Of a DNA stretch of 52,496 bases, positions 566 to 50,050 are shown piece after piece (the first letter of the stretch is position 1; every line of letters starts with the position of its first letter). The DNA is from Anaerolineales bacterium (lineage in GTDB: Bacteria > Chloroflexota > Anaerolineae > Anaerolineales > DRMV01): NCBI GenBank assembly GCA_027053355.1, contig JALUDX010000055.1, positions 1 to 52,496 of the forward strand, in the 5' to 3' direction. The notes below the pieces were generated by a model that worked only from the letters and a program-made list of their open reading frames with translations, made no database searches and was not told where the DNA came from. The position numbers and the translations under genes were made by a program.

Positions 566-3070
566 ATGATGCGTTTTGATCGCTTCACCGAGCGAGCGCA
601 AGAGGTTGCCCAGCGGGCAGCCGAACTCATCCAACGCTACGGTCACACCCAAATCGACACCGAGCACATCTTGCTGGCCCTGCTGGAGCAACCCGAAGGC
701 ACGGTGCCGCAAATTTTGGAACTGCTGAACACGCCCACACCGACGTTGATTCAGCAGGTCGACCACATCCTCCGCACCACGCCCAAGGCCAACATCTTTG
801 GCGGCGGCGCGGGGCAAATTTTCATCACCCCGCGCGTCAAGCGCATTGTCGACATGGCCAATCAGGAAGCGAACCGCCTGCAAGACGAATACATTTCCAC
901 AGAACACCTCTTCCTGGCCATTCTCAACGAACGCAACACCCCCGCGGCCACCCTGCTGGCTTCGGCGGGCGTCACCAAAGAGCGGGTGTACCGCGCTATT
1001 CAGCAACTGCGCGGCGGCCAACGGGTCACCGACCGCCGGGCGGAAAGCCGCTACCGCGCTTTGGCCAAATACTCGCGCGACCTGACCCAATTGGCCCGCG
1101 AAGGCAAACTCGACCCGGTCATCGGCCGCGATGGCGAAATTTTGCGGGTCATTCAGGTGCTTTCCCGGCGCACCAAAAACAACCCCGTGCTCATCGGCGA
1201 GGCGGGCGTGGGCAAAACGGCCATCGTCGAAGGGCTGGCGCAGAAAATCGTCAGCGGCGACGTGCCCGAAATCCTGGCCGGCAAGCGGGTGGTCTCCCTC
1301 GATTTGGGCGCCATGATTGCCGGTTCCCGCTTTCGTGGCGACTTCGAAGAGCGCCTGAAGGCCGCCATCGAAGACGTCAAGCGTTCTGAAGGCGAAATCA
1401 TCCTCTTTATTGACGAATTACACACCGTGGTGGGCGCGGGCGCGGCCCAGGGCGCGATGGATGCTTCCAACATGCTCAAGCCCGCGCTGGCGCGCGGCGA
1501 GTTGCAATGCATCGGCGCGACCACCCTCGACGAATACCACAAATACATCGAAAAAGACGCCGCGTTAGAGCGCCGCTTCGCGCCTGTGTATGTGGAAGAG
1601 CCGAGTATCGAAGATACCATCGAAATGCTGCGTGGCCTGCGCGACCGTTACGAAGCCCACCACCGGGTGCGCTTTACCGATGCAGCGTTGGTAGCCGCGG
1701 CGCGGCTTTCCAGCCGCTATGTGACCGACCGTCACCTGCCCGACAAGGCCATTGACCTGATCGACGAAGCCGCGGCCAAACTGCGGGTGGCGCTCTATTC
1801 CCTGCCCCCGGCCCTCAAAGCCAAAAAAGCGGAAATCGACCGCCTGATCGCGGAGGAAGAGCAAGCCCGCGAAGCCCGCGACTACGAACGCGCGGCCAAC
1901 AAGAAAATGGAACGTCTGCGCCTGGAAGAGGAATTCCAGCAGCAGCGCGCCGCCTGGGAAGCCGAAAACCAACTGGACGAAGTGGTGGATGCCGAAGACA
2001 TCGCGGAGGTGGTCTCCCAGTGGACGGGCATTCCCGTGACCCAGATGATGGAAACCGAAGCCGAGCGCCTGCTGCACATGGAAGAGCGCCTGCACGAGCG
2101 CATCGTGGGGCAGCACGAGGCCATTGCGGCCATTTCCGACGCCATCCGCCGCGCCAGATCAGGGCTGAAAGACCCCCGCCGCCCCATCGGGTCGTTCATC
2201 TTCATCGGCCCCTCGGGGGTGGGCAAAACCGAACTGGCCAAGGCGTTAGCCGAATTCCTGTTCGACGACGAAGACGCCTTAGTGCGGGTGGACATGAGCG
2301 AATACCGCGAGCAGCACACGGTTTCGCGGCTGTTTGGCGCGCCGCCGGGCTATGTGGGCTACGAAGAAGGCGGGCAACTCACCGAAGCCGTCCGCCGCCG
2401 CCCTTACCGGGTGATTTTGTTCGACGAAATCGAAAAAGCCCACCCCGAAGTGTGGAATTCGTTGCTGCAGATCCTCGACGATGGCCGCCTCACCGACGGC
2501 CAGGGGCGGGTGGTCGACTTCCGCAACACGGTGATCATCATGACTTCCAACCTGGGCACCGAATTCGTGCGCAAATCGGGTTCGTTGGGCTTCCTGCAAG
2601 GGGAAAGCAACGGCGACGAAGACCGCAAGGCGCAGGAAAAAATCGAGAAAGCCCTGAAGGCCACCTTCCGTCCCGAATTTCTCAACCGCATTGACGAAAT
2701 CATCATGTTCTCGCCGCTGAGCAGGGAAGAAATGCAGAAGATCGTGGATCTGCAGATGGCCGAGGTCGCCGAGCGGCTGGCCGAGCGCGACCTGACCGTG
2801 CAGTTGACCGAGGCGGCGCGTGATTACTTGGCGGAAATCGGCTACGACCCCGACTTTGGCGCCCGCCCGCTGAAGCGCGCCCTGCAGAAACACATCGAAG
2901 GCCCCTTGGCCATCCGCCTGCTGAGCGGCGAATTTGCCCCTGGCGACGCCATCGAAGTGGATGTGGAAGAAAACGAAGCCGGCGAAAAGGGCGTGGTGTT
3001 CCGCAAAGTAGAAGGCGCCCCTCGAGACGAGGCAGAGGCCAAGGCTCCCGAGCCCAACGCTGAGGCCTGA
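566..3070 (+). CDS. clpC: ATP-dependent Clp protease ATP-binding subunit, ClpC type
   Basis: 834 aa with two Clp_N repeats. NBD1 has GEAGVGKT and ILFIDELH. The short UVR-like middle domain reads [23 protein letters not shown]2 has GPSGVGKT and [21 protein letters not shown]. Confidence 0.93.
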
Positions 3071-6191: not shown

Positions 6192-7020
6192 CCCTGCCAT
6201 GCTCAAACAACGTGTGCTTGTAGCCCTCATTCTCCTGCCTGTGGGGATAGCACTCATCCTCTGGGGCGGCCTGGCCTACCTGGCTATGGTCGCCTTTTTT
6301 ATGGCCATCGCCGTGTGGGAATACGCGCACCTGTTTGCCAGGTTAGGGCGCCGGCCCGCCGCGGGGCTGATGGTGTTGGGGGTGCTCGCGCTGGTTGGCG
6401 CGCGCTATTGGCTCGGCTTTCGCGGCACCGCGCCCTTGGTGGTCGCCCTGATGCTGCTCTTATTGCTCTACCACATGGCCGATTACGCCCGCGGCGCAGA
6501 CGAAAGCGGCACCGACTTTGCCGTCTCCCTCAGCGGTGTTCTCTACCTGGGGCTGCTGGGCGCGTACATGATCTCGCTGCGTCAGTTGCCGGGCGGCGTT
6601 TGGTGGGTGTTGCTCACCTTGCCCACCATCTGGCTGGCCGACAGCGGCGCGTATTTCATCGGCCGGGCCTGGGGGCGCCACAAACTCAGCCCCCGCCTCA
6701 GCCCCAAAAAGACCTGGGAAGGCTACCTCGGCGGTATCCTCACCGGCGTGGCCGGCGCGGCCCTGTTGGCCTGGGGCATGACCGCTTTGGGAAAAGGCGC
6801 CCTGCCCGCGGGGCTCACCCCTTCCTCCGCCGCCGCATTGGGCTTGCTGCTCAGCGCCCTCGCCCCCCTCGGCGACCTGGCCGAAAGCATGTTCAAACGA
6901 CAAGCCGCGCAAAAAGATTCCGGCCATCTGCTCCCCGGCCACGGTGGCGCGTTCGACCGCATTGATTCCTGGTTGTGGGCTGGCGTGCTGGCTTATTATT
7001 TCGTCTTACTCGTCTCTTGA
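6184..7020 (+). CDS. cdsA: phosphatidate cytidylyltransferase
   Basis: Polytopic protein with the C-terminal signature [12 protein letters not shown] ... [36 protein letters not shown] 6184 overlaps the uppS stop (ATGAATAG). The ORF track starts at the upstream in-frame TTG 6163. Confidence 0.9.
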
Positions 7021-7243
7021 TGACTGTTCAGCCTTGGCGAGGAGAAACCACAGATTACGCAGATTTCGCAGAAAAACATCCACAGATTGCCCAGATGAGC
7101 ACAGACTGAGCGAAAAACACAACCCCCCTCCGTTTCTTGGCGCGTTTGGCGTCATCTTGGCGACTTTGGTAACCTAAAAATCCGTGCACATCCGTGACGC
7201 TCCGTGTTGTCCGTGGTCTATTTCTTTGTGGCCGAACAGTTAC
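7020..7243 (+). mobile_element. MITE, GTAACNGTTCAGCC-TIR family (copy A1)
   Basis: Ends are ATGACTGTTCAGCC and GGCCGAACAGTTAC. A perfect 8-bp direct repeat GTCTCTTG flanks it at 7012-7019 and 7244-7251. The interior is built of CAGAT and CTTGGCG short periodic units. Confidence 0.8.
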
Positions 7244-7273
7244 GTCTCTTGAACCCCAATAAAGGAGGCCGTA

Positions 7274-9019: not shown

Positions 9020-9260
9020 GTAATTACCTACCCAGAAGCGCTGCAGTGGCTTTTTGCCCTCACCTTACCCCCGCTGTGCGCCCCCTCTCCTCTCCCATTG
9101 GGAGAGGAGAGGGGGCTGAGCCACTACCCTGAGCGAAGTCGAAGGGGGCGGCTCTGGGGGAGTGGTGAGGGCGAGCAAGGTGTAATGTTGTTTCATGGCA
9201 TGGCAGAGTTATTGGGATATTGCTTGTCAACCTCGTTTTCAGCGCAGGGTAGGTAGTTAC
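9020..9260 (+). mobile_element. 240-nt MITE, GTAATTACCTACCC-TIR family (copy B1)
   Basis: TIRs are GTAATTACCTACCC and GGGTAGGTAGTTAC. Flanked by the direct repeat CAAAAATCTT(G) at 9010-9020 and 9261-9271. The core is a 17-bp perfect hairpin, GCCCCCTCTCCTCTCCC-ATT-GGGAGAGGAGAGGGGGC. Confidence 0.8.
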
Positions 9261-12187: not shown

Positions 12188-12198
12188 CGGCACAGTCG

Positions 12199-12252
12199 CT
12201 GTTCAGCCTTGGCAAGGAGAAACCACAGATTACGCAGATTTCGCAGAAAAAC
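12199..12252 (+). mobile_element. truncated A-type MITE left end, interrupted by B2
   Basis: CTGTTCAGCCTTGGCAAGGAGAAACCACAGATTACGCAGATTTCGCAGAAAAAC closely matches (a few mismatches) the A1 left arm, then abuts the B2 terminus. Confidence 0.7.
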
Positions 12253-12492
12253 GTAATTACTACCCTGCACCGAAAACGAGGCTGACAATCAAAGTTTCAG
12301 TAACTTTGCCATGCCATGAAGCAACATTACACCTTGTTCGCCCTCACCACTCCCCCAGAGCCGCCCCCTTCGACTTCGCTCAGGGCGGCGGCTCAGCCCC
12401 CTCTCCTCTCCCAGTGGGAGAGGAGAGGGGGCGCGCAGCGGGGGTAAGGTGAGGGCGAAAAGCCACTGCAGCGCTTCTGGGTAGGTAATTAC
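12253..12492 (-). mobile_element. 240-nt MITE, GTAATTACCTACCC-TIR family (copy B2, inverted relative to B1)
   Basis: This is the reverse complement of B1. By manual alignment the first 185 nt or so differ at about 9 positions and the last 50 nt or so are more diverged. No clear target duplication. Confidence 0.8.
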
Positions 12493-12545
12493 GAAGTTCC
12501 GCGCCTTTGTTGGCAGCACCTCTCTTGGGTTGGGCGGAACGCTAA

Positions 12546-12614
12546 CGCCGCCCTACGACGCTCTCAAATCCGCGGCTATCCGTAATCCTCCGCGTTCATC
12601 CGCGGCCTATCTCC
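12546..12614. repeat. GCGGAT-module repeat fragment
   Basis: AAATCCGCGGCTATCCGTAATCCTCCGCGTTCATCCGCGGCCTAT is nearly the reverse complement of 26775-26845. Confidence 0.7.
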
Positions 12615-12677
12615 CGCGCAGATTTCGGAAGCAACCGCCCCGCGTCGTCCGCGGGCGATCTTCCCAAGGAAACCGCC

Positions 12678-16171: not shown

Positions 16172-16245
16172 GTAACCGTTCAGCGCAAACAAAAGAGAAA
16201 TCTCAATGACGAGACGGAAAAACACAGAAGACACAGAATTCGTGA
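16172..16245 (+). mobile_element. truncated MITE left end (D-type interior)
   Basis: GTAACCGTTCAGCGCAAACAAAAGAGAAATCTCAATGACGAGACGGAAAAACACAGAAGACACAGAA matches the termini at 47778 and 49780 (reverse complement). Confidence 0.6.
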
Positions 16246-18836: not shown

Positions 18837-18984
18837 GGCGACCTCCCAAGGCGGAAATCAGATAAAAACCAGATTACCCAACACAAAATCAATCGTATCC
18901 CGGCCGTTGTTTCATTGGCCGACAATCTCATCTCGTCAGCCCAAGGCTTTTCGGAAATCTCGCTTTTCCCGCCCTCTCCTCTCC

Positions 18985-19086
18985 CCCCAAGCCGCCCCTT
19001 CGACTTCGCTCAGGGCGGCGGCTCAGCCCCCTCTCCTCTCCCACTGGGAGAGGAGAGGGGGCGCACAGCGGGGGTAAGGTGAGGGC
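18985..19086 (-). repeat. partial B-type MITE core (copy B3)
   Basis: Matches the B2 interior, including the GGGAGAGGAGAGGGGGC hairpin and CTTCGACTTCGCTCAGGGC. It lacks both TIRs. Confidence 0.7.
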
Positions 19087-19147
19087 GTTTAGTATGTTGA
19101 TGCTCAATTGCGTAATATGAGTTATTAGAACAAATGTCTAATGTAGC

Positions 19148-19370
19148 ATTGTCAAGTTACGCAGACGGAAAAACACAGAAAGCGGAAGGGGTTGAGGTAC
19201 TGAGGGATTGGGGCAAATGGGGGTTGGTTGCCTGGTTACCTGGTTGCTTGGTTGCTTGGTGGTTGGTTACTCAGGCGCTTCTCCTGGTGCCCTCGGCGAC
19301 CTAAAATCCGCGTCTCTCCATAATGATCCGCGTTCATCCGCAGGCTGTTTCCTTATGGCTGCACCGTTAC
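19148..19370. mobile_element. mosaic MITE (D-type) with degenerate left end
   Basis: Modules in order: CACAGAAAGCGG, a GGGATT G-run, a GGTTGCCTGGTTAC array (19222-19270), ATCCGCGTTCATCCGC, and the right TIR GGCTGCACCGTTAC. That TIR contains the stop codon of the DUF92 gene. Confidence 0.6.
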
Positions 19371-21596: not shown

Positions 21597-21793
21597 GTAA
21601 CTATTCAGCCACAAGGGAATAGACCACGGATAGCACGGATTTTTAGGTCGCCAAGGTTGCCAAGATGACGCCAAGACCGCCAAGAAGTGAGGGCGAGCGT
21701 GGGCTTTTTAGTGTTTTTCGCCCAATCTGTGCTCGTCTGTGGATATCTTTCTGCGTAATCTGTGGTTTCTTCTTGCCAAGGCTGAATAGTTAC
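21597..21793 (-). mobile_element. MITE, GTAACNGTTCAGCC-TIR family (copy A3)
   Basis: Perfect 14-bp TIRs GTAACTATTCAGCC / GGCTGAATAGTTAC. The 8-bp flanking repeats are GATCGTGT (21589-21596) and GATCTTGT (21794-21801), a 7/8 match. Confidence 0.8.
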
Positions 21794-21898
21794 GATCTTG
21801 TTTGAAAATGCATTGGGCAGTGGTGAAGCGTCCCCGCGCCCTTTTTTGGAGCATGGCAGTGCGTGGTCTAAAAGGTTTGAGGGCGTACCGTGCCACCT

Positions 21899-24060: not shown

Positions 24061-24098
24061 CGCCGCAGAGGCCCTGGCTTCTGCGGCGTTTCGTATCT
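24061..24098 (+). terminator. candidate intrinsic terminator after gap
   Basis: A 9-bp stem CGCCGCAGA / TCTGCGGCG with a 10-nt loop and a TTTCGTATCT tail. The tail is partly formed by the A4 insertion. Confidence 0.45.
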
Positions 24099-24215
24099 GT
24101 GCAGCCTCGGCAAAGAGAAACCGCAGATTGCGCAGAAAAACATCCATAGATTGGCACAGATTGGGCAAAACTTGGCGACCTAAAAATCCGCCGTTTCCCA
24201 AGGGCTGAATGGCAC
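24093..24215 (+). mobile_element. short MITE, GTAACNGTTCAGCC-TIR family (copy A4, degenerate)
   Basis: Ends are GTATCTGTGCAGCC and GGCTGAATGGCAC. The 8-bp flanks are GGCGTTTC (24085-24092) and GGCGTTCC (24216-24223), a 7/8 match. Confidence 0.7.
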
Positions 24216-25055: not shown

Positions 25056-25380
25056 GTAGGGGCGACTGGCCAGTCGCCCCTACGAAAGCCCCGCGGTGTT
25101 TTGGAGCAGCGCGAGGGAAACACAGAAACCCCAGAAAGGCCACAGAAAACGCAGAAGGCGGCAAGGCAGGCGCGAGGCAGCGCCTTACCCGCTTTTGGGG
25201 TGCGGCGCTCCTGTAGGGGCGAACGGCCGTTCGCCCCTACGAAAATGCCATGCCCGCGCGCATGATTGTAGGGGCACAGCGCCGCAGTGCCCCTATGCCC
25301 CGCGGCGTTTGGGAGCAGCGCGAGGGAAACACAGAAGCCACAGAAAGGCCACAGAAAACGCAGAAGGCGGCAGGGGTAGG
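25056..25380. repeat. about 210-nt tandem direct repeat carrying GTAGGGGCG...CGCCCCTAC hairpins and CACAGAA modules
   Basis: Perfect 28-nt palindromes at 25056-25083 and 25213-25240, with an imperfect one at 25268-25296. Units 25088-25170 and 25297-25380 are near-identical. Confidence 0.8.
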
Positions 25381-25485: not shown

Positions 25486-25671
25486 GCAACCGTTCAGCCT
25501 GGAGAAAATCAGACGCGGATGAACGCGGATGGCAACAAATTCCTGCAGATTTTTGAGACGCCCAGAAGTGAGCGTGGCGCTTTTCAGCGCCGTTCGTTCA
25601 ATCTGTGAGATCTGTAGATGCCCCTCCGCTGCGTAATCTGTGGTTTCTCCATGCCGCGGCTGAACCGTTAC
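25486..25671 (-). mobile_element. MITE, GTAACNGTTCAGCC-TIR family (copy A5), inside the fur-family 5' UTR
   Basis: Ends are GCAACCGTTCAGCC and GGCTGAACCGTTAC. The perfect 8-bp duplication CAACAAGG sits at 25478-25485 and 25672-25679. Confidence 0.8.
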
Positions 25672-26685: not shown

Positions 26686-26753
26686 GGGCGAGCCCCAGCC
26701 GGAAGAAGCCGGCCGGGGACTTTCAACCCAGCGGGGCGCAAAGTAGTCTGTAG

Positions 26754-26950
26754 GTAACTGTTCAGCCTTGGGAAAATAGGCCGCGGATGAACGCGGATCA
26801 TTACGGATAGCCGCGGATTAAGCGTGTCGTAGGACGGGACGCCAATCCCGCCCAGCCCAAGGGAGGCAAGACAGTATGCCGCCAACAAAGGCGCGCAAAG
26901 CAAAGTAAGATACTGTGTCTTCTGTGTTTTTTTGTTTGCGCTGAACAGTA
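26754..26950 (-). mobile_element. mosaic MITE (D-type interior)
   Basis: GTAACTGTTCAGCC ... GCGCTGAACAGTA with GCGGAT and CACAGAAGACACAG modules. It abuts a GTAGG hairpin on both sides. Confidence 0.7.
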
Positions 26951-26976
26951 GGGGCGCAGCGCCGCTGCGCCCCTAC
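26948..26976. repeat. GTAGGGGCG...CGCCCCTAC hairpin
   Basis: The 29-nt palindrome GTAGGGGCGCAGCGCCGCTGCGCCCCTAC belongs to the same family as 25056 and 25213. Confidence 0.8.
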
Positions 26977-27261
26977 ACACGCCAAACATGATGAAGAGCG
27001 CCAAGAAGGTGAGCGCCCCGCTGGCCGCCCCTGCAAGCCCACAAATTTAGAATTGACAAACCAGTAGGGGCGAGGTGCCCCAGCCTCCCACCCAAGCAAC
27101 AAAGTAACCAGCCAGCCAAGTAACCCACCTCGCCTGCACACTCTGCAGTTTTTCCCTTGTCCAGTTTATCGAGGGGGTCAGGCCGCTCCTTCTCTCCTTC
27201 TGGAGGCGTTTGGTTCTCGCGGCAGGATGCGGTACAATGGAAGCATCCCACCCCAGGAGCC

Positions 27262-28002: not shown

Positions 28003-28023
28003 CCACCCCAATCCCCCCACCCG

Positions 28024-28090
28024 ACCAATCAACCAGGCAACCAGGCAACCAGGTAACCAAGCAACCAGGTAACCAAGCAACCAACCAACC
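28024..28090 (+). repeat. CAACCARGYAACCARG periodic array filling the lutA-lutBC spacer
   Basis: CAACCAGGCAACCAGGCAACCAGGTAACCAAGCAACCAGGTAACCAAGCAACCAACCAACCC ends 1 nt before ATG 28092. There is no SD. Confidence 0.85.
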
Positions 28091-30666: not shown

Positions 30667-31271
30667 TGCGCCCGATACGAGCCGTGATTTTGGATTTCGG
30701 CGGGGTCTTGCTGCATGTCACCAACCCCGCGGCGCACCAGGCGTTGGCGCGCGAATTGGGCATCCCCCTGCAGGTCTTGCACTTTCAGGTGTTCGAAGGG
30801 CCGCTGAGCATGGCCGCGCAGCGGGGCGAAATCACCCCCCGCGCCCTGTGGGAGGGGCTGGCCGAGCAATGGGGGCTGCCCCGCGACCAGGCCGACGCCC
30901 TGGCCTTGCGCTTCTGGCAGGGCGTGAGCGTAGATACCGCGCTGGTCACCTGGCTGCGCGGGTTGCGCCCCCGTTATCGCACCGGCTTGCTCTCCAACGC
31001 CTGGCTCGACCTGCGCGATCTGTTGCGCCACACAGGGATTTTGGATGCCTTCGATGCGCTGGTGATTTCCGCTGAAGAAAGGCTGATGAAGCCAGAGCCG
31101 GCCATTTACCGCCTGATGTTGCAGCGGTTGGGCGTGGCGGCCGCGGAGGCGGTGTTTGTGGACGACCGCGCGGAAAACGTGGCCGGCGCCCAGGCTTTGG
31201 GGATGCACGGCGTGCTTTATCGCCATCGCGACCAGGCGATTGCCGAGGTCGAGGCCTTATTGGCGGCGTAA
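30666..31271 (+). CDS. HAD-superfamily hydrolase (subfamily IA)
   Basis: Motif I ILDFGGVLL and motif IV FVDDRAENV. The ATG overlaps the upstream TGA (TGATG). The stop TAA lies inside the first bases of MITE A7. Confidence 0.85.
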   Translation: MRPIRAVILDFGGVLLHVTNPAAHQALARELGIPLQVLHFQVFEGPLSMAAQRGEITPRALWEGLAEQWGLPRDQADALALRFWQGVSVDTALVTWLRGLRPRYRTGLLSNAWLDLRDLLRHTGILDAFDALVISAEERLMKPEPAIYRLMLQRLGVAAAEAVFVDDRAENVAGAQALGMHGVLYRHRDQAIAEVEALLAA

Positions 31272-31483
31272 CGGTTCAGCCGCGGCGAGGAGAAACCACA
31301 GATTTCGCAGATGTCGCAGAAAGACATCCACAGATTTCACAGATTAGCACAGATTGAGCGAAAAACACTAAAAAATCCACTCTCACCCTCACTTCTTGGC
31401 GGTCTTGGCGTCATCTTTGGCGACCTTGGCGACCTAAAAATCTGTGTTATCTGTGGTCTATTTCCTTGTGGCTGAATGGTAAC
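31268..31483 (+). mobile_element. MITE, GTAACNGTTCAGCC-TIR family (copy A7)
   Basis: Ends are GTAACGGTTCAGCC and GGCTGAATGGTAAC. The perfect 8-bp duplication TTGGCGGC sits at 31260-31267 and 31484-31491. Confidence 0.8.
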
Positions 31484-36336: not shown

Positions 36337-36491
36337 GGTTACCTGGTTACTTGGTTGCTTGGTTGCCTGGTCGCCTGGTTGTCTCTCTCGGCGGCTTTGG
36401 CGTCTCCTTGTTGGCGCCGCTCTGCGCCGACTTCCTTGGTACCGAACCCCGCGTTCGTCCGCGGGCTGTTTTCCGCAGGCTGAACGGTCAC
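36337..36491. mobile_element. truncated mosaic MITE (GGTTGC array + GCGGAC module + right TIR)
   Basis: Runs GGTTACCTGGTTACTTGGTTGCTTGGTTGCC ... CGCGTTCGTCCGCGGGC ... GGCTGAACGGTCAC. The TIR ends 1 nt from the helicase stop codon. Confidence 0.6.
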
Positions 36492-36492
36492 T

Positions 36493-40215
<3,723 letters not shown>

Positions 40216-40221
40216 GGGGGG

Positions 40222-40266
40222 CTGGTTGCTTGGTTGCCTGGTTACTTGGTTGCTTGGTTGGTTGCC
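40222..40266 (-). repeat. CAACCARGYAACCARG periodic array abutting the EndoQ-UvrD start
   Basis: The sense strand reads GGCAACCAACCAAGCAACCAAGTAACCAGGCAACCAAGCAACCAGCCCCCC-ATG. It overlaps the last codons of the RmlD-like gene. Confidence 0.85.
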
Positions 40267-41183
40267 TCTGCGGCCCAGGCGCGTAGGCGTGCCGGGTAGC
40301 CTTGCTGGTATTGGGCAAAGAAGGCGGCCAGCCCCTCCCGCCAGGAGGGCAAAGGGTGGCCCAGGGCGTTGGCCAGTTTGTCGTTGCGCAGGGTGAGGCG
40401 GGGCGCGCGCCGCGCGGCCAGCCCGGCCTGGGCTACCGACGCGGGGCGGATGAGCGCGGGAGGGTAGCCAAAGCGCCGCGCCAGGGCTACGCCAAAGGCG
40501 TATTTGCTCAGGCAGGCCGAGCCGGTGGCATGGAACACGCCGGCCAGGCGGGCTGTCAGCACTTCCAAAATGAGCCGTGCCAGGTGGTTGGCCAGCAAGG
40601 GGCAGAAAAAGACGTCGGTAAAGCCATTCATCGGCCGCCTGGCCTGCAAATTGTGCAAAAACCACTCGGCCAGGCTGCGCGTGCCGGAGAGGCTCCAGCC
40701 GAAGAAGTTGACCCGCAGCACCGCGGCCTGGGGGTAGGCCGCCAACACGGCTTGTTCACCGGCGAGTTTGGTGCGGGCGTAGGTGCTAAGGGGGCGGGGG
40801 GCGTCGTCTTCGGTGTAGCCCCCGCGCGCGCCGTCGAAGACCGCGTCGGTGGAAATGTGCACCAGCGGGATGCCGTCGGCCGCGGCCAGGGCGGCAATTT
40901 CGCCGGGGAGGGCGGCGTTCAACTGCCGGGCCAAAGCGGGCTGGTGTTCGCACGCGTCCAGATGGGCGAGGGCTGCAGTGTGCACCACCGCGTCGGGCCG
41001 CGCCCAGGCCCACACCGCGGCCAGGGCGCCCGGCCGGGATAAATCGGCCTGCTGCACGGCAAAGGGCGCTGCAGGCAAAGAGCGCCGCCCGGCAACGCCC
41101 AACACCTCGTGGCCGTGGCGGTGGGCTTCCCAGGCCAGGTTGAGGCCCAGCAATCCCGTGACGCCGGTGATGAGCAGACGCAT
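40242..41183 (-). CDS. RmlD-like NAD(P)-dependent sugar-nucleotide 4-keto reductase
   Basis: Motifs LITGVTGLLG and STDAVFDG...YTEDD...PLSTYARTKLAGE. ATG 41183 is used; the upstream ORF extension is repeat-derived. Confidence 0.78.
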   Translation of the reverse strand: MRLLITGVTGLLGLNLAWEAHRHGHEVLGVAGRRSLPAAPFAVQQADLSRPGALAAVWAWARPDAVVHTAALAHLDACEHQPALARQLNAALPGEIAALAAADGIPLVHISTDAVFDGARGGYTEDDAPRPLSTYARTKLAGEQAVLAAYPQAAVLRVNFFGWSLSGTRSLAEWFLHNLQARRPMNGFTDVFFCPLLANHLARLILEVLTARLAGVFHATGSACLSKYAFGVALARRFGYPPALIRPASVAQAGLAARRAPRLTLRNDKLANALGHPLPSWREGLAAFFAQYQQGYPARLRAWAAEATNQATK

Positions 41184-41262
41184 GGGGTAGGTTCCTGGGG
41201 AGGGATGGGGGGAGTGGGGTGTTAAGGGATTAGGGTACTGAGGGATTGGGGGATTGGGGTGC
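41184..41262. repeat. G-run (GGGATT/GGGG) module; C-rich on the sense strand directly upstream of the RmlD-like ATG
   Basis: At least 9 runs of 3 or more G within 79 nt on the plus strand. GTACTGAGGGATTGGGG is shared with 19196-19222. Confidence 0.8.
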
Positions 41263-41426
41263 TGATTTTTAAGCCGCCAAGGTCGCCAAGATGACGCCAA
41301 GACCGCCAAGAAGCGAGGGCGAGAGAGGGCTTTTTAGTGTTTTTCGCCCAATCTTACTCATCTGTGGATCTCTTTCTGCGTAATCTGCGTAATCTGTGGT
41401 TTCTTCTTGCCAAGGCTGAACAGTGA
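41262..41426 (-). mobile_element. A-type MITE lacking one terminus (copy A8)
   Basis: GCCAAGGTCGCCAAGATGACGCCAAGACCGCCAAGAAG ... CTGCGTAATCTGTGGTTTCTTCTTGCCAAGGCTGAACAGTGAC. Confidence 0.7.
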
Positions 41427-41432
41427 CGCGGC

Positions 41433-42410
41433 TTAGAGAGATTGCACCATTTCGCGAATTTGCTCGACGGTGAGCCATTCGCTGTTGGTGTTGCTGGCGT
41501 AGCGGAAGCCTTCGGGCAGGGGGCGTCCCCGGTCTTGCCAGGCGTAGCCAAACCACAGGGCTTCGGCCGGTTGAATGACGAACATGTCATCCAGTTCCAC
41601 CGTGTGGCGGGCTTCGTCTTCGTTCACCAGCACCTCGTGCAGTCTTTCGCCCGGGCGGATGCCGATGATTTCTACCTGGGCATCGGGCGCGATGGCCTTG
41701 GCCAAGTCGGTGACTTTGGTGCTGGGGAGTTTGGGCACGAACACCTCGCCGCCTTCCATCTGTTCGATGCAGCGGATGACGAAGCGGACGCCCTGTTCCA
41801 GAGAGAGCCAGAAGCGGGTCATGCGGGGGTCGGTGATGGTCAGCCGACCGGTTTGGCGCTGCTGGAGGAAGAGGGGCACCACGCTGCCCCGGCTGCCCAC
41901 CACGTTGCCGTAACGGGTGCAACTGAAACGGGTGGCCGTGCCCGCGGCGTAGGCGTTGCTCTGCACGAAAAGTTTTTCCGCGGCCAGTTTGGTGGCGCCG
42001 TAAAGGTTGACCGGGTTGACGGCTTTGTCGGTGCTCAGGGCCAGCACCCGTTTCACTCCCGCGTCCAAGGCGGCTTCGATGACGTTGCTGCTGCCGAGGA
42101 TGTTGGTTTTGATGGCTTCCATGGGGTTGTATTCGCACGCGGGCACTTGCTTGAGCGCCGCGGCGTGCACCACGATGTCCACGCCGTGCAAGGCGCGGCG
42201 CAGGCGCTCGCGGTCGCGCACGTCGCCGATGAAGTAGCGCAGGTTGGGCTGGTCGAAACCGGCCACGCGCATTTCGTGCTGTTTCAGTTCGTCGCGGCTG
42301 AAGACGATGAGTTTCTTGGGTTGAAACTCCCGCTGCACGATTTCGACGAACTTCTTGCCGAAGGAACCGGTGCCGCCGGTCACCAAAATCACTTGGTCTT
42401 GCCAATTCAT
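41433..42410 (-). CDS. UDP-sugar 4,6-dehydratase, PseB/CapD-like
   Basis: Motifs ILVTGGTGSFGK, HAAALKQVP, STDKAVNPVNLYGATK and IRPGE. The ATG overlaps the upstream stop (ATGA). Confidence 0.87.
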   Translation of the reverse strand: MNWQDQVILVTGGTGSFGKKFVEIVQREFQPKKLIVFSRDELKQHEMRVAGFDQPNLRYFIGDVRDRERLRRALHGVDIVVHAAALKQVPACEYNPMEAIKTNILGSSNVIEAALDAGVKRVLALSTDKAVNPVNLYGATKLAAEKLFVQSNAYAAGTATRFSCTRYGNVVGSRGSVVPLFLQQRQTGRLTITDPRMTRFWLSLEQGVRFVIRCIEQMEGGEVFVPKLPSTKVTDLAKAIAPDAQVEIIGIRPGERLHEVLVNEDEARHTVELDDMFVIQPAEALWFGYAWQDRGRPLPEGFRYASNTNSEWLTVEQIREMVQSL

Positions 42411-44014
42411 GACACATCCTCGCGGGAAGGAGATTCCCAGGGCAGAGGCGCGCCGACGAAGCAGGCGATGGTCTTTGCCCAGGGGCTGGTGGGGTTCCAC
42501 ACTTCAGGCCACGGGTGACGGCGGACGTCCTCTTCCATGAAGTGCAGATGCCAGGGGAAGGGCAGGGGGTAGTCAAAGAAGAAGTGGTAGGCGTATTTCC
42601 AGGCCAAGGCGATCTGCTGCTCGGAAAGGCGGAAGCGCTGCGGCGCGCGGGTGAGGGCGTCCAAAGTCTGCCAGTAGTCGTCCCAGGTGGTGGGGTCGAG
42701 GGTGAAGCCGCGACCGCGGTAGTGGGTTTTCCCGGCCACCACCACGGGCAGGCCGCTCATGGCCATTTCCAGCCCCACGGTGGTGGTGAAGACCAGCCCG
42801 GCCGCGGCGGTTTCGATCAGGTCGTAGGTGTTGACCTTCGCGTCGGCGGGCACCAGGTGGATGTGTTCGGGCAGGCGAGGCAGCGCGTGGCGCACTTCCT
42901 CGGCCAAAGAGGTGCCCTTCACCCGCTGTTCGCCGGGGTGGATGCGAACCACCAGTTGCACCTCAGGGTGGCGGGCAAAATAGCGCACGGTTTCGCGCAC
43001 CCACTCGGCCATGCTGCGGGTGAACACTTCCCGCCCGAGCACCAAACTATCGCCCTGGACGTTGGTGGCCATGAGGAAGAGGGGCCGGCCGTCGAGCCCT
43101 AAGGCGCGGCGGGCTTGTTCGCCGCTTTGGCTGGGCGCGTCTTGCCAGCGCCGCGAGAAGTTGGCCCACAGCCGCCCCCCGCGGCGGGCGGCAAAGAGTT
43201 CCTTGACCTGCTCCCACTGGGACGGGCTAAGGGGGCGCTGGTGCACGGCCTGCCACAGCGCGGTGGTGTCTTGCAGCATGACCTGCGCGTTTTGGGCTAT
43301 CCAAACCCGGTCGCGCTGCTCGCCAAATTCGTAGGTGACCACCGGGATGTCCAAATAGCGGGCGGTGTGGTAGGCCGCGCCAAAGGCCAAGATGGAGCCG
43401 TTGGGCACGATCACCACGTCGGGGCGTTGACGCTGCCACAGGGCCAACAGCGCCCGCGCGGTGGCCGTGTTGCGGCTGTGGCGGAGGCGGTACAAGGGGC
43501 TGTGAGGGTCGGGCGTCTCGACCTGTTGGGTGTATTGCACGTCGAAGCGGGTGACCTCTTCCACCGCCTGGGCCAGCGGCGACGGCAGCGCGGGGGCGTG
43601 GGGTCGCGGCCAGAGGGGCAAGGGGGTGAACGCGGCCTCACCAGGCCGCAACATGCGCGCCAGGTAGGCGTTCATCCGCCGCAGGTCGAAGCGCGACACG
43701 CGCGTCCACCAATCGGGGTAGGGCAGGTAGCCCAGCGTCACCCGATGCCCCAGCCCGGCCAGGCCCAGGGCCACCAGGGTGGTGTGGGCAATCCACAGGC
43801 GCAGCGCGGCCACGAGGAACACGCGCTGCCCCTGCGCCGCGGGCGCGGCAGCCGCTTGGGCCTGCGCCGCCCATTGGGGAAGGTGCGCGGCCACCTGCGG
43901 CAGGCGCATTTTCCCCACCGCCGCGCCTCGTTGCCGCAGCCACCAGTAGGTTTCCGCGGTCAGGGGCACCTGCCCCAGCACCTCTTTGAGCGCCCGGCGC
44001 AGAGAGCCTTTCAT
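42407..44014 (-). CDS. capsule-polysaccharide biosynthesis protein (KpsS/KpsC-like glycosyltransferase)
   Basis: 535 aa. ...FLMATNVQGDSLVLG ... VVRIHPGE ... TTTVGLEMAMSGLPVVVAG ... resembles the Capsule_synth family. Confidence 0.6.
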   Translation of the reverse strand: MKGSLRRALKEVLGQVPLTAETYWWLRQRGAAVGKMRLPQVAAHLPQWAAQAQAAAAPAAQGQRVFLVAALRLWIAHTTLVALGLAGLGHRVTLGYLPYPDWWTRVSRFDLRRMNAYLARMLRPGEAAFTPLPLWPRPHAPALPSPLAQAVEEVTRFDVQYTQQVETPDPHSPLYRLRHSRNTATARALLALWQRQRPDVVIVPNGSILAFGAAYHTARYLDIPVVTYEFGEQRDRVWIAQNAQVMLQDTTALWQAVHQRPLSPSQWEQVKELFAARRGGRLWANFSRRWQDAPSQSGEQARRALGLDGRPLFLMATNVQGDSLVLGREVFTRSMAEWVRETVRYFARHPEVQLVVRIHPGEQRVKGTSLAEEVRHALPRLPEHIHLVPADAKVNTYDLIETAAAGLVFTTTVGLEMAMSGLPVVVAGKTHYRGRGFTLDPTTWDDYWQTLDALTRAPQRFRLSEQQIALAWKYAYHFFFDYPLPFPWHLHFMEEDVRRHPWPEVWNPTSPWAKTIACFVGAPLPWESPSREDVS

Positions 44015-45288
44015 GGCGCGGCCTCGGTCTCTTGGGGTTCGATGGCCCAGGTCAGCCGAGGGCGAATCAGGCCCACCCGCTTTTCAGGCCAATGGCTGCC
44101 GGGCGCGCCGGTGGCATCGACGTGAAAAGCCACCGCGTTGTCTTCTTGAAAATACCGTTTGACCCGGTAGGCGCTGGCGTTGACCGAGAGCAGATAGCGC
44201 CCGCCGTTGAGCAAATCGGCCGGGATGACGCAACGGCTGACATAGCGCCCGGCCGGGCGGGTAGCCCACCGCTGATAGTGCTCCGCGTCGTCGGTGTCGA
44301 ACGAGGCGAACACGTACTCCCCGCGCATACTGAGCAGGTAAATGCCCACCCGCAAGCCCTGAACGGGCTGGTGCAGTCGGTACGCCACCTCCACGGTCAC
44401 CGGCTCGGTGGAGCGGACGGTATCGGTGACGCGGCCCCGGGCATCTTTGACCCGCAGCGTGAGGGGTTGGAAGGGGTAAGCCGAGGCCGGAATTTCTTCG
44501 GGTTGCCAGGTGCGTTCCCCCGCGCCATGCACTGCCGTGGCCAGGTAGTGGTCGACTGCCTCGGGGGTAGGGCCGTGGAACACGATGCGCCCCTTGTCCA
44601 ACACGATGGTCTCTTCGGTCAGGTTGAGGATGGCCGACATGTTGTGGCTGACGAACAACACGGTGCGCCCGCCCTGAGCGACGTCGCTCATGCGGCCCAG
44701 GCACTTCTTCTGAAAGGCCGCGTCGCCGACGGCCAACACCTCGTCGACCACCAGGATTTCCGGCTCCAGGTGGGCGGCCACGGCAAAGGCCAGGCGGACG
44801 TACATGCCGCTGGAATACCGCTTGACCGGGGTATCTAGAAACCGCCCGATTTCGGAGAACGCCACGATTTCATCAAATTTATGTTCAATTTCTTCGCGGC
44901 GCATCCCCAAAATCGCGCCGTTGAGGTAGATGTTTTCCCGACCGGTCAACTCAGGGTGAAAACCGGTGCCCACCTCCAGTAAGGAACCCACCCGGCCGCG
45001 AATTTCGGCATAGCCCTCGGTGGGCTCGGTGACCCGGGAGAGGATCTTGAGCAGCGTGGACTTGCCCGCGCCGTTGCGGCCGATGATGCCCAACACCTTG
45101 CCCTGGGGGACGTCGAAAGAGACGTGGCGCAGCGCCCAGAGGATATCTTCGCGGGGCCGCGCCGCGGCGCGGCGGCGGAAGAGGGAGGTCGCCGCCTGCG
45201 CCAAGGCATCGCGCAGGGTGGCGTAGGCATCCATCTGCCGCCCCAGGTGGTAGCGTTTGCCGAGGTCGTGAACACGGAGGGCGTACAT
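44011..45288 (-). CDS. wzt: glycan-export ABC transporter ATP-binding protein with C-terminal carbohydrate-binding-type domain
   Basis: Motifs GRNGAGKST, YSSGMYVRLAFA and LVVDEVLAVGD, plus a 180-aa or so C-terminal extension typical of Wzt/TagH. Confidence 0.9.
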   Translation of the reverse strand: MYALRVHDLGKRYHLGRQMDAYATLRDALAQAATSLFRRRAAARPREDILWALRHVSFDVPQGKVLGIIGRNGAGKSTLLKILSRVTEPTEGYAEIRGRVGSLLEVGTGFHPELTGRENIYLNGAILGMRREEIEHKFDEIVAFSEIGRFLDTPVKRYSSGMYVRLAFAVAAHLEPEILVVDEVLAVGDAAFQKKCLGRMSDVAQGGRTVLFVSHNMSAILNLTEETIVLDKGRIVFHGPTPEAVDHYLATAVHGAGERTWQPEEIPASAYPFQPLTLRVKDARGRVTDTVRSTEPVTVEVAYRLHQPVQGLRVGIYLLSMRGEYVFASFDTDDAEHYQRWATRPAGRYVSRCVIPADLLNGGRYLLSVNASAYRVKRYFQEDNAVAFHVDATGAPGSHWPEKRVGLIRPRLTWAIEPQETEAAP

Positions 45289-45294
45289 GGGGGG

Positions 45295-45342
45295 AGGAGG
45301 TTAGGAAGATAGGAAGATAGGAAGATAGGAAGATAGGAGGTT
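45295..45342. repeat. octamer tandem AGGAGGTT-(AGGAAGAT)x4-AGGAGGTT in the wzm-wzt spacer
   Basis: Four perfect copies at 45303-45334 with two flanking variant units. The sense (minus) strand reads (ATCTTCCT)n ... CCCCCC-ATG of wzt. Confidence 0.9.
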
Positions 45343-45352
45343 AGGGGGTGCG

Positions 45353-46189
45353 CTACACGCGGTCGGCGAATTGGCGCTCCATGCGGCGGAAGAAGTACAG
45401 CCCGCTCACCAACAGCAGGAAGGCGACGGCCGTAGACACCGCCAACGACGCGTCCGGCCCGGTGGGGGTGCCCAGCAGCGCCCAGCGGAAGCCGTTGACC
45501 ACCCCGGCCATGGGGTTGAGGGCGTAGAGCAGCCGCCATTTCGGCGGCACCAAGGTCGAAGAATACGCGATGGGGGTGATGAACATCCAGGCCTGGGTCA
45601 AAAAAGGCAAGGTGTAGCCCACGTCGCGGTACAGCACATTGAGCGCGGAGAGCCACAGCCCCACCCCCAGCGCGGTGATGAGGGCGAGCAGTAGAAAGGG
45701 CACCAAAGCCCACACCCGCGCGGTGGGCGCGATGCCGTAGTAGGCCATCATGGCCAAGAGCACCAGGAACGCGATGCCAAAATCGACCACGCCGCCCAAC
45801 AAAGAAGCCAAGGGAATCACCAAGCGGGGAAAATACACCTTGGTCAGCATGTTGCGGTTGGCAACCAAAGAGCGGCCAGCATCGTTGAGCGCCTTGGAAA
45901 ACAGTTGCCAGGGCAGCAGCGCGGCATACGAAAAGATGGGATAGGGGACGTTATCCGAAGGAATGTGCGCCAGCCGCCCAAAGAAGAGGGTAAACACCAC
46001 CATGGTCAAAAAGGGCTGCAAAATCGCCCACGCGGCGCCCAAAAACGTCTGCTTGTAACGCACCTTGATGTCCCGCCAGGTGAGGAAATAAACCAACTCC
46101 CTATAACGCCACACTTCCCGCAGGTTGAGGTCGAGCCAACCGCGGGAAGGGCGGATGATGATGATTTCGTCTGCTGGCGAAGGGGACAT
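45353..46189 (-). CDS. wzm: glycan-export ABC-2 permease
   Basis: 278 aa with 6 TM segments and the ABC2_membrane pattern (WRYRELVYFLTWRDIKVRYKQT). Confidence 0.88.
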   Translation of the reverse strand: MSPSPADEIIIIRPSRGWLDLNLREVWRYRELVYFLTWRDIKVRYKQTFLGAAWAILQPFLTMVVFTLFFGRLAHIPSDNVPYPIFSYAALLPWQLFSKALNDAGRSLVANRNMLTKVYFPRLVIPLASLLGGVVDFGIAFLVLLAMMAYYGIAPTARVWALVPFLLLALITALGVGLWLSALNVLYRDVGYTLPFLTQAWMFITPIAYSSTLVPPKWRLLYALNPMAGVVNGFRWALLGTPTGPDASLAVSTAVAFLLLVSGLYFFRRMERQFADRV

Positions 46190-46203
46190 AAGTACTCAGG
46201 GGG

Positions 46204-47693
<1,490 letters not shown>

Positions 47694-47924
47694 TTATTAT
47701 ACCGCATCCCTGCGGGGGCCGGGCGCGAAGGCGCGCAAACGCTGCTGGCGACCGCTCCGGCATTAGCCACCCGACACGCAACCATTCAGCGCAAAAGGGG
47801 AGTCTCAATGACGCAGGCAGAAAACCACAGAAGACATAGAGGAAGCACAGAAAACACAGAAGACTGCCAGGCAATGGGCGCAAGGGACAAGGCGTGTTAG
47901 AATGCGAAGACGGCAGACCGGGGA

Positions 47925-47940
47925 TGTTTCACGTGAAACG
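47925..47940. other. parS: parS-like ParB binding site (15/16 to TGTTTCACGTGAAACA)
   Basis: TGTTTCACGTGAAACG. Confidence 0.75.
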
Positions 47941-47961
47941 CCGGGACGCCGCGCCGCCCTC

Positions 47962-47977
47962 CGTTTCACGTGAAACA
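47962..47977. other. parS: parS-like ParB binding site (15/16 to TGTTTCACGTGAAACA)
   Basis: CGTTTCACGTGAAACA. Together with the first site it forms perfect 19-bp inverted arms (47922-47940 / 47962-47980). Confidence 0.75.
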
Positions 47978-48674
47978 TCCGCCCACCATCTCAGCGCCCA
48001 GCCCACAAGGAAACGGGGCGCAGATGACGCAGACAGAAACCACAGAAGACACAGAAAGCGGGAAGTCAAAGCGTGATCCGGGATGCGGGAAGAGGCGGGG
48101 GGCTAAAAGGCTGGGCGGCTGGTTGCCTGGTTGCCTGGTTACTCGGGTGCCCCTCCTGGCGCCTCGACGCCCGCAAACCGCGCCTATTCGCCATCATCCG
48201 CGTTCATCTGCGGGCTACCTCCTAAAGGCCGAACGGTTACAAGGGAGCAAAGAACGCCAAGGAAAAGCCCCGCATCTCCGCAGCCCCCTCGCGCCGCGCT
48301 CCACTCCCGCACCGCGCCCACCCACAGAAGCCGAGAGCATCCGTTCGATTTTCCAAAAAAAACGCCAGTCTTTCCGGTAGTGTTTCGTAAAAATCCGCCA
48401 GAAAAGCGCGGTATTCGCCAAAAATGAGAGCAAATCCAAAAAGCGGCGGCCAATCGCGCTGCTTTACCACAAAATACAGCAACGCGAGTCCGCTTATCGC
48501 GAAAATGCCGAGCGGGCGGCCGCCGCTCCCGCAGCGCGGGCTATCGAGATAAACCCCAGCGTTTACACTTGTTTTCGCGATAACGGCGCATCATCTTGCG
48601 AATTTCAGGAAAAGCGATAGTGTTTCCCGAAAAGTGCTCTGCGTAAGCGCGCGAACAGAGAAAAGGAGGGTAGT

Positions 48675-49436: not shown

Positions 49437-49542
49437 GGCTTACCCTGCCTCCATAGGCCACGGCGCGAACCGAGAAAACCCGTCGGCCCCGCGCGTTATC
49501 GGGTACAATTGAGGCGTTCGTCCTTTGCAACCCTTCGGCCTC

Positions 49543-49780
49543 GTGTTCAGCCTTTGGGAAGCAGCCCACGGATGAACGCGGATGATGGCGGATAGATGCG
49601 GATTTTAGGGCGCCGAGGGCGCCGGGAGAGGCACCTGAGTAACCAAGCAACCAGCCCCCCAACCCTTTAGCGCCTCACCTCTTCCCGCATCCCGGATCAC
49701 GCTTTGACTTCCCGCTTTCTGTGTCTTCTGTGGTTTCCGTCTGCGTCATCCGCAGCGTCTCTTTGAGGCCAAACAGTTAC
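49543..49780 (-). mobile_element. mosaic MITE (D-type), inverted relative to 47778..48240
   Basis: The reverse complement matches 48015-48240. About 75 nt are near-identical (GATGACGCAGAC.GAAACCACAGAAGACACAGAAAGCGGGAAGTCAAAGCGTGATCCGGGATGCGGGAAGAGG). The terminus is GGCCAAACAGTTAC. Confidence 0.7.
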
Positions 49781-50021
49781 TCGGCCTCGAGAAAATCGGC
49801 CACGGATGACGCGGATGGCAACGGTTTCCCGCGGATTTTTGGGTCGCCAAGTAACGCAAAGGCGCAGAAAGGGAAGCGCCAAGATGATGCCGAGACCGCC
49901 AAGAAACGAGGCTGGGCGTTGCACTTTTTAGTGTTTTTCGCCCAATCTGTGCTCATCTGTGAAATCTATGGATGTCTTTCTGCGTAATCTGCGGTTGCTC
50001 CTCACCAAGGCTGAACAGTTG
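49781..50021 (-). mobile_element. A-type MITE directly abutting the D-type copy (copy A9)
   Basis: GCCAAGATGATGCCGAGACCGCCAAGAAACGAGG ... CTGCGTAATCTGCGGTTGCTCCTCACCAAGGCTGAACAGTTG. Confidence 0.65.
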
Positions 50022-50050
50022 TCATCCTTTTCGCCCTTTGGCAGGTTCTC

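Follow-up and report, generated by a model that had tools for sequence, protein, structure and literature searches.

Family A, a family of miniature inverted-repeat transposable elements with ISBst12/IS66-type ends in a hydrothermal-vent Chloroflexota lineage

The stretch of DNA analysed here (hereafter the window) is contig JALUDX010000055.1 of assembly GCA_027053355.1, a 52,496-bp contig of 64% G+C that originates from a hydrothermal-vent metagenome and is assigned to an Anaerolineales bacterium (Chloroflexota). The GAPDH encoded on it groups, in a 90% cluster, with an NCBI protein labelled Chloroflexota bacterium. The contig carries ordinary housekeeping genes (clpB-like, frr, uppS, cdsA, glpX, a DinG-like helicase gene, guaA, gap, fur, lutB-like, acyl-CoA dehydrogenase and UvrD-like helicase genes and a polysaccharide/ABC-transporter cluster). 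Between these genes lie many copies of a short, non-coding repeat which we call family A. As described below, family A is a genuine, very abundant and recently active family of MITEs (miniature inverted-repeat transposable elements), whose ends are of the type borne by the ISBst12 group of IS66-family insertion sequences.

Copies of family A between the genes of the window

Family-A elements are bounded at both ends by the same 14-bp tip, GTAACNGTTCAGCC. When the window was searched with GTAACNGTTCAGC, allowing at most one mismatch, 12 matches were found against 0.18 expected, and none of 100 shuffled sequences reached 12. In a set of 260 ends, preselected at no more than two mismatches to the tip motif GTAACNGTTCAGCC, positions 1-14 were conserved at 74-99%. 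Each end is built of the tip, a spacer of about 12 nt and two to six direct heptamers of the form CRCRGAW, and the arms behind the tips can be told apart by their units: E1 (CACAGAT), E2 (GCGGAT(GAAC)GCGGAT), E3 (CACGGAT) and E4 (CACAGAA), with CGCCAAG/CGCAAAG or CTGGTTGC as further arm units. Insertions are found between genes or in the last codons of genes; the stop codon of a HAD-hydrolase gene, for instance, is now the TAA of a GTAAC tip (31269-31271), so that the gene ends one codon ahead of its inferred original stop.

A first-pass annotation of the window had proposed that this family fills most intergenic regions. Self-comparison identified about 4.2 kb of repeated DNA, equivalent to 8% of the window and 56% of its roughly 7.4 kb of intergenic DNA, and of the 20 intergenic gaps exceeding 100 bp, 16 contained repeats. 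Family A occupies at least 14 sites in the 52 kb, but part of the repeated DNA belongs to other families, namely family B (with GTAATTACCTACC ends), hairpins resembling repetitive extragenic palindromic (REP) sequences, and solo 8-mer arrays. The 14 copies then listed had real ends, all of which were recovered at up to three mismatches to GTAACNGTTCAGC, but only seven two-ended elements are present (7020-7243, 21597-21793, 24093-24215, 25486-25671, 31268-31483, 49543-49780 and 49527..50022), the others being one-ended, truncated or composite (Table 1). A single terminus was found in each of the supposed copies at 16172-16245, 19148-19370, 36337-36491 and 41262-41427; at 26754-26950 the right end is damaged and no duplication is seen, and 47778-48240 is a composite. 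What had been taken for a short copy at 12199-12252 proved to be a left arm; the copy to which it belongs starts at 12195 and is interrupted by a MITE of another family at 12253-12493.

The supposed separate copy at 49781-50021 is the remainder of an outer element, whose left terminus was entered by the inner element 49543-49780. The inner element (E2...E4) is flanked by TCGGCCTC/TCGGCCTC (8/8) and the outer one (E2...E1; 49527-49542 plus 49781-50022) by CGTCCTTT/CATCCTTT, the first 8 bp of its second piece being the duplicated TCGGCCTC. Four base pairs of the inner left terminus are lost in the window copy; the relative L148 retains the full GTAACTGTTCAGCC. The two duplications and the intact inner end in L148 thus identify a nested pair rather than two neighbours.

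Table 1. Family-A sites and related repeats in the window (positions in the 52,496-bp stretch)
Position	Strand	Feature	Structure and flanks
7020..7243		Intact family-A MITE, 224 bp	Arms E1 (left) and E3 (right) around a central CTTGGCG array; duplication GTCTCTTG at 7012-7019 and 7244-7251; cdsA stop codon on one side, glpX ribosome-binding site on the other
9020..9260		Family-B MITE	Ends GTAATTACCTACC...GGTAGGTAGTTAC; CAAAAATCTT on both sides, 10 bp here; missing in four related metagenome-assembled genome (MAG) or metagenome contigs; empty site in L229, TTTTCAAACATCTTGCTTTCC
12195..12620		Composite	Family-A terminus GTCGCTGTTCAGCC and E1 arm (12195-12252); family-B MITE (12253-12493); remnant ending in an E2 arm without terminus (about 12556-12615)
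16172..16245	+	One-ended family-A fragment	Terminus GTAACCGTTCAGCG and E4 arm (CACAGAAGACACAGAA); no right terminus
19159..19370		Family-A copy, left terminus missing	E4-like arm, G-rich 8-mers, (CTGGTTGC)n array, E2 arm, right terminus GTAACGGTGCAGCC
21597..21793		Intact family-A MITE, 197 bp	E3...E1; duplication GATCGTGT/GATCTTGT; polymorphic among relatives
24093..24215		Intact but short family-A MITE, 123 bp	Duplication GGCGTTTC/GGCGTTCC
25486..25671		Intact family-A MITE, 186 bp	E2...E1; duplication CAACAAGG, 8/8
26747..27062		316-bp block	Damaged family-A copy (26754-26950; left terminus perfect), REP-like hairpin (26948-26975) and further sequence; absent from relatives; AGTAG microhomology at the junction
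28018..28089	+	Solo array, 72 bp	(CAACCAGG)n, no termini; absent from relatives
31268..31483		Intact family-A MITE, 216 bp	E1...E3; duplication TTGGCGGC, 8/8; present in relatives
36337..36491		One-ended family-A copy, convergent-gene gap	[GGTTRC] array, E2 arm, right terminus GTGACCGTTCAGCC
40204..40269	+	Solo array	(CTGGTTGC)n; no terminus within 1 kb
41262..41427		One-ended family-A copy	CGCCAAG array, E1 arm, right terminus GTCACTGTTCAGCC; G-rich 8-mers directly ahead (41208-41261)
47778..48240		Composite, no duplication	Degenerate terminus GCAACCATTCAGCG and E4 arm (47778 to about 47870); unrelated palindromic insert; copy 48020-48240 ending GTAACCGTTCGGCC, resembling 49543-49780 (92% over 113 nt aligned)
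49527..50022		Nested pair	Inner element 49543-49780 in the left terminus of the outer element

Target duplications, empty sites and copy number

An arm-specific (E1) pattern was scanned against the entire metagenome collection and gave 84 loci totalling 0.46 Mb. All 84 came from three Joint Genome Institute (JGI) metagenomes, which indicates that family A is confined to a narrow lineage; together with the window, these loci make up the 0.52 Mb of lineage DNA used below. A scan of the genome collection with GTAACNGTTCAGCCNNG returned, among the matches listed, one family-A locus (L020, in an Anaerolineales MAG) and two other Anaerolineales loci, most of the remainder being gut Lachnospiraceae and chance matches. 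Short non-coding Lachnospiraceae elements bearing the same 14-nt tip were seen at L008 855-1040 and L045 4369-4554 (both 186 bp) and, also among the matches listed, at L075 223-512, L067 7523-7910 and in L010, L046 and L102; gut Lachnospiraceae further contain bare tip-to-tip palindromes of about 30 bp. Single MITE-like elements bounded by the tip were present in another Anaerolineales MAG (duplication GACTGGAG), in a MAG of the spirochaete Brevinema and in an Omnitrophota MAG (L122 4065-4217, L071 934-1077 and L040 4954-5047).

Five copies in the window had been credited in the first-pass annotation with flanking 8-bp direct repeats, and all five are there as written (GTCTCTTG/GTCTCTTG, GATCGTGT/GATCTTGT, GGCGTTTC/GGCGTTCC, CAACAAGG/CAACAAGG and TTGGCGGC/TTGGCGGC); the inner and outer elements of the nested pair add two more. 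The duplications extend to other copies in the lineage contigs. For 54 terminus pairs in the 0.52 Mb, each terminus having at most one mismatch, the flanking 8-mers agreed at 8/8 positions in 25 pairs and at 7/8 in 11 (36/54 in total), and the identity of control 8-mers shifted by 8 bp never rose above 4/8. Relaxing the match required of the ends raised the number of distinct elements flanked by duplications to 65, of which 51 are 154-248 bp and 14 are 352-687 bp long. No target preference was visible in the element flanks.

Contigs of close relatives (93-96% identical) also supplied a precise empty site. In four independent vent runs (X2, X4, X9 and X11), only 39 nt, orthologous to the right flank, connect position 21592 with position 21837, so that exactly 197+8 bp (244-39), the MITE and one duplicate, are missing. 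At this site the related contig L222 reads ACCAAGATCTTGCTTGAG, with a single GATCTTGC, and the window reads ACCAA-GATCGTGT-[MITE]-GATCTTGT-TTGAAAATG. Over 18.8 kb in which L222 and the window are 93-97% identical, the only large differences were four repeat-associated blocks of 278, 198, 316 and 72 bp. The reverse case was found as well, a 235-bp copy that in L227 lies between diacylglycerol-kinase and Na/Ca-exchanger genes and that the window does not have. Other copies are common to the window and its relatives (24093, 25486, 31268 and 49527/49543, as well as 7020, which the relatives' contigs enter from both sides).

Read depth inside the element was 130-575 times that of flanking unique DNA in three runs, which suggests hundreds of family-A copies per genome equivalent, a number that may be inflated by other family-carrying populations in the same samples. 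With statistically supported duplications and a precise empty site, family-A elements are mobile MITEs: they are short and non-coding, have terminal inverted repeats and a fixed 8-bp duplication, occur in many copies and are polymorphic with an empty site.

Ends, arms and neighbouring repeats

The ends of family A had been likened to those of IS66 elements, and full-length insertion sequences with the same tips support this assignment. Locus L089, from a Lachnospiraceae host, holds one at 1222-3038 (1817 bp; inverted repeats identical at 20/20 positions), whose 14 terminal bases are those of family A and whose single open reading frame (ORF), of 494 aa, matches the Pfam domains DDE_Tnp_IS66 (E=4e-19) and DUF6444. 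Homologues of this protein, named 'IS66 family transposase' by NCBI, belong to additional elements that have these termini too and are cleanly flanked by 8-bp duplications, such as L208 (1815 bp, flanked by ATCAATCA) and L214 (1833 bp, flanked by TATACATG). In L089 and L207-L214, all from Lachnospiraceae, the full-length element has these termini and the DDE_Tnp_IS66 transposase is its only ORF. Less closely related members of this transposase clade with high GC, reached via 50% representatives and amino-acid composition, have the ends GTTACTATTCAGCC (L215/L220) and GTTACTGTTCACAC (L216/L217). In L215 (1-144) and L220 (3-368) a separate upstream ORF ends in a coiled-coil segment, in place of a fused N-terminal zipper; elements of this sub-branch hence have two ORFs.

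Within the IS66 family, the assignment can be narrowed to the single-ORF ISBst12 branch, as is supported by the comparison of ends. ISDge4 of Deinococcus geothermalis, which has been placed in the ISBst12 group of the IS66 family, has one ORF, the inverted repeats GTGACTACTCAGCA / GTAACTGCTCAGCA and a direct repeat of 8 bp (PMC12898284, 2026). Its end matches the family-A terminus at 12 of 14 positions. Canonical IS66 inverted repeats begin with GTAA and read GTAAGCGTCCGGCG... (PMC12888890); the family-A termini diverge from them beyond GTAAC. The three-gene arrangement of canonical IS66 (tnpA-tnpB-tnpC), with GTAAGCGTCC-type repeats, was not encountered, the matching full-length elements having a single ORF. 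Family A and the ISBst12 group, as represented by ISDge4, L089, L208 and L214, share GTAAC-headed termini reading GTAACNG(T/C)TCAGC and 8-bp duplications, features that mark out the kind of transposase expected to act on family A. They differ in that the full-length elements measure 1.4-1.9 kb and encode the transposase, whereas family-A copies measure 150-250 bp and do not, and in that the full-length elements examined lack the phased heptamer arrays that family A carries inside both ends.

These arrays bear out the earlier description of the interiors as periodic. In the first 110 nt of 248 distinct ends, 662 CRCRGAW heptamers pointed inward and 39 were reversed. Heptamers start near nt 27, 37, 47, 60 and 70; the spacing is 9 nt in 249 cases and 10 nt in 82, and 142 of the 152 arrays with at least three units lie within 150 bp of a terminus. 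That the heptamers are oriented, keep to set positions and follow the helical turn makes it plausible that they bind a protein. Oriented short motifs at roughly helical spacing inside the ends are also a feature of Tn7 (TnsB sites), Mu (att sites) and the plant elements Ac/Ds and En/Spm. There the repeats have been proven to bind the transposase, whereas those of family A would be candidate binding sites, and the family-A motif differs from one arm type to another (CACAGAT, GCGGAT, CACGGAT, CACAGAA).

The interiors had further been called mosaics of interchangeable modules, and this proved apt. In a sample selected through E1, the E1 arm was joined to at least nine different partner arms and never to another E1. 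At 12195 the window has tip and E1 arm; the same site in relatives, after the helicase gene, reads terminus, E4 arm, G-rich module and E2 arm. The same E2 arm follows further on in both, so the arm next to the tip has been replaced in situ. Orthologous copies also differ in unit number: that of 24093..24215 in L177 shows 10-bp and 34-bp indels within the heptamer arrays, that of 25486..25671 in L164 has one additional 10-bp unit, and L148 lacks 80 bp of a CGCCAAG array relative to the window. The simplest reading of the mosaic appearance is recombination or gene conversion between copies that have termini and arms in common, together with replication slippage within the short arrays.

Other repeats share the gaps with family A. 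Family-B elements are about 175-320 bp long, with ends GTAATTACCTACC...GGTAGGTAATTAC and a GCCCCCTCTCCTCTCCCAnTGGGAGAGGAGAGGGGGC hairpin; besides the copy in Table 1, they occur at 12253-12493, as a core at 18995-19087 and in L020/L169 (7407-7590). Their flanking 8-mers agreed at 7/8 or 8/8 positions in 12 of 15 pairs, several copies sit inside family-A heptamer arrays and, since their ends too start with GTAA, they may use a related IS66-type enzyme. The 278-bp block missing in L222 (18881-19158) sits in the E4 arm of the 19159..19370 copy and holds the family-B core hairpin without B ends, its right edge reading ...CAAGTTAC. GTAG-headed REP-like palindromes (GTAGGGGCG...CGCCCCTAC) lie at 25056-25082, 25213-25239, 25268-25295 and 26948-26975, one of them at the edge of the 316-bp block missing from relatives; the 0.46 Mb of related contigs contained only four more. 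Upstream of fur, 25088-25375 forms a direct repeat at 209-bp spacing with CACAGAA arrays (79-bp copies at 25088-25166 and 25297-25375, 94% identical), and in related MAG contigs this gap measures 434 or about 640 bp, a difference, in unaligned gap lengths, of approximately one 209-bp unit.

Among the genes, the ORF at 36493-40665 has UvrD helicase domains from residue 640 onwards and no Pfam match in its N-terminal 640 residues; it contains, at 38044-38307, a tandem duplication in perfect register (132 bp or 44 codons, 97% identical). The cluster at 40242-47681 comprises polysaccharide/ABC-transporter (Wzm/Wzt-like), NUDIX and GDP-mannose dehydratase genes, and in L227 it is not beside the M23-peptidase gene. 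Similarity to L227 begins only at 47846, within the composite repeat, so that the variable cluster is bordered by the MITE-rich gaps 41208-41427 and 47778-48240.

Origin of family A and its significance

Family A very probably consists of MITEs that arose from the ISBst12 branch of the IS66 family and were amplified in a lineage of vent Chloroflexota. The elements would be non-coding deletion derivatives, mostly of 150-250 bp, of single-ORF insertion sequences of that branch, whose DDE transposase would recognise the 14-bp GTAACNGTTCAGCC and cut out or copy the element; insertion by a staggered cut followed by repair would yield the 8-bp target duplication. In Anaerolineales-like vent Chloroflexota the family may in this manner have multiplied to a copy number in the order of hundreds per genome, with copies persisting where they are least harmful (between genes and in last codons) and also inserting into each other. 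The transposase was presumably supplied in trans from a rare or now-lost copy in the lineage, and the recent insertion differences between close relatives argue for such a source in the not too distant past. The inward CRCRGAW arrays, phased every 9-10 bp from about 27 bp inside the tip, may serve as subterminal protein-binding sites; their binder would probably be the transposase, and they would aid the assembly of both ends.

Several observations weigh against this reading. The L089 protein scored 137 bits against the NCBIfam IS66 equivalog, below the curated cut-off of 180, and should therefore be regarded as a divergent branch. No IS66-family transposase was detected by tblastn, with L089 and 206 other IS66-family proteins as queries, in the window plus a sample of 0.46 Mb of lineage contigs; a lone match in L187 (80 aa, E=7e-5) lies in no matching ORF. 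No element above 700 bp with family-A ends and a duplication was found in the lineage DNA, a search over 500-5000 bp returning only composites of 587 and 687 bp, and an autonomous copy with matching ends was likewise not found in this contig sample of the lineage. A lineage-specific transposase sought via 50% representatives and composition led to the two high-GC relatives, neither of them from the lineage of the window. The transposase elements with identical termini belong to another phylum and, as their ends carry no heptamer arrays, binding of the arrays by the transposase has no direct support. To these points are added the possible inflation of the copy number and the fact that some presence/absence differences, namely those at 26747-27062, at 18881-19158 and of the 72-bp array, do not look like clean transposition. 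The first-pass annotation had proposed mobilisation in trans by an IS66-like transposase encoded elsewhere. A transposase with matching ends does exist, in the Lachnospiraceae elements, but none was found in about 0.5 Mb of the lineage, and mobilisation in trans within its own genome can for this reason only be inferred.

A bolder version of the proposal gives the interiors a function of their own. The arrays would be working multi-site platforms, bound either by an ISBst12-type transposase through its coiled-coil N-terminal domain or by a DNA-bending protein of the host, E1 would be the end required in cis, able to recombine with many different partner arms, and new mobile combinations would arise by arm exchange rather than by decay of a parent insertion sequence. 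E1 is the only arm that is always present, in a sample that was itself selected by the E1 pattern. We consider this version doubtful; if true, these would be the first elements of the IS66 type to show subterminal repeats arranged as in Tn7, Mu or Ac/Ds.

It is also conceivable, though improbable in our view, that elements spread by transposition are now retained for the use of the host, as platforms for nucleoid or regulatory proteins, as bent DNA or as structured or protein-titrating RNA. The strong orientation of the arrays and their phasing at about one helical turn would fit such a role, as would the terminus-free arrays beside genes: that at 28018..28089 directly abuts the ATG (28090) of the LUD/Fe-S (lutB-like) gene, which in relatives without the array lies just 15 nt from the upstream stop codon, and another occupies 40204-40269. 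The E2 and E3 arms, moreover, carry repeated GGA motifs, which might let a transcript titrate a protein. The two arms of one element differ and are yet partly complementary, so that each strand could form a long imperfect hairpin, and whole-element folds reached -73.9 and -78.2 kcal/mol per strand, better than shuffled sequences (z = -3.4 and -2.9). The fold is, however, no better than degenerate inverted arms would give anyway. Units and whole blocks are gained and lost among relatives of 93-96% identity, which resembles neutral instability, and the motifs vary with arm type. Promoter-like and terminator-like sites were not enriched at the elements, which matched no Rfam family and had nothing associated with them in a tRNA scan.

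Mobilisation by another family that makes 8-bp duplications, for example ISL3, IS1595 or IS256, with a convergent match to IS66-type ends, would agree with the lack of an IS66-type transposase in the sampled lineage DNA. Nevertheless, the terminus matches three independent full-length IS66-family elements at 14/14 positions, with the same duplication length, and ISDge4 at 12/14, and related ends recur throughout that transposase clade. The ends of ISL3, IS1595 and IS256 start with GG and look different, and we regard this alternative as very unlikely. Least credible by far is a REP/REPIN, bacterial interspersed mosaic element (BIME) or BOX type of repeat, spread by a REP-associated tyrosine transposase (RAYT) or by recombination instead of a DDE reaction: modular build, intergenic placement, hairpin potential and the true GTAG-headed REP-like palindromes nearby recall such repeats, but REP, BIME and BOX elements make no target duplication, whereas two thirds of family-A pairs are duplicated, empty sites hold a single 8-mer, and the termini match DDE elements; the REP-like hairpins nearby are a different repeat.

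Family A can also be set beside known bacterial repeats. The Correia/NEMIS elements of Neisseria, MITEAba12, Nezha of cyanobacteria and RUP of Streptococcus are likewise small and non-coding, with inverted repeats and duplications, and resemble family A in copy number, intergenic location, nesting and presence or absence among strains; they derive from other insertion sequence families (IS5, IS630, IS4 and others) and have other duplication lengths. BOX of Streptococcus pneumoniae and the BIMEs of E. coli are, like family A, modular and mosaic with a variable number of blocks, but unlike family A they have neither terminal inverted repeats matching an insertion sequence nor target duplications. 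A literature search found no prior description of the terminus sequence or of MITEs in Anaerolineae. In a limited search we found no described MITE family tied to ISBst12/IS66 ends, and the publications mentioning both IS66 and MITEs drew no link between them.

Family A itself is a new family of a well-known type of element. Its wider interest lies in a 14-bp tip conserved across phyla, in the phased subterminal arrays and in the exchange of arms. The tip shared with Lachnospiraceae, a spirochaete and an Omnitrophota MAG suggests that a MITE superfamily tied to ISBst12-type elements is widespread and for the most part undescribed. How IS66-family elements transpose is poorly understood (PMC12898284), and family A offers hundreds of natural, ready-made minimal substrates, each combining a conserved 14-bp tip with variable phased subterminal motifs, that define what an ISBst12-type transposase needs in cis. 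For the organisms themselves, families A and B account for nearly all large structural differences between vent Chloroflexota populations of 93-96% identity. Many related metagenome contigs end or break in these elements, which thus explain the fragmentation of MAGs and can serve as strain markers.

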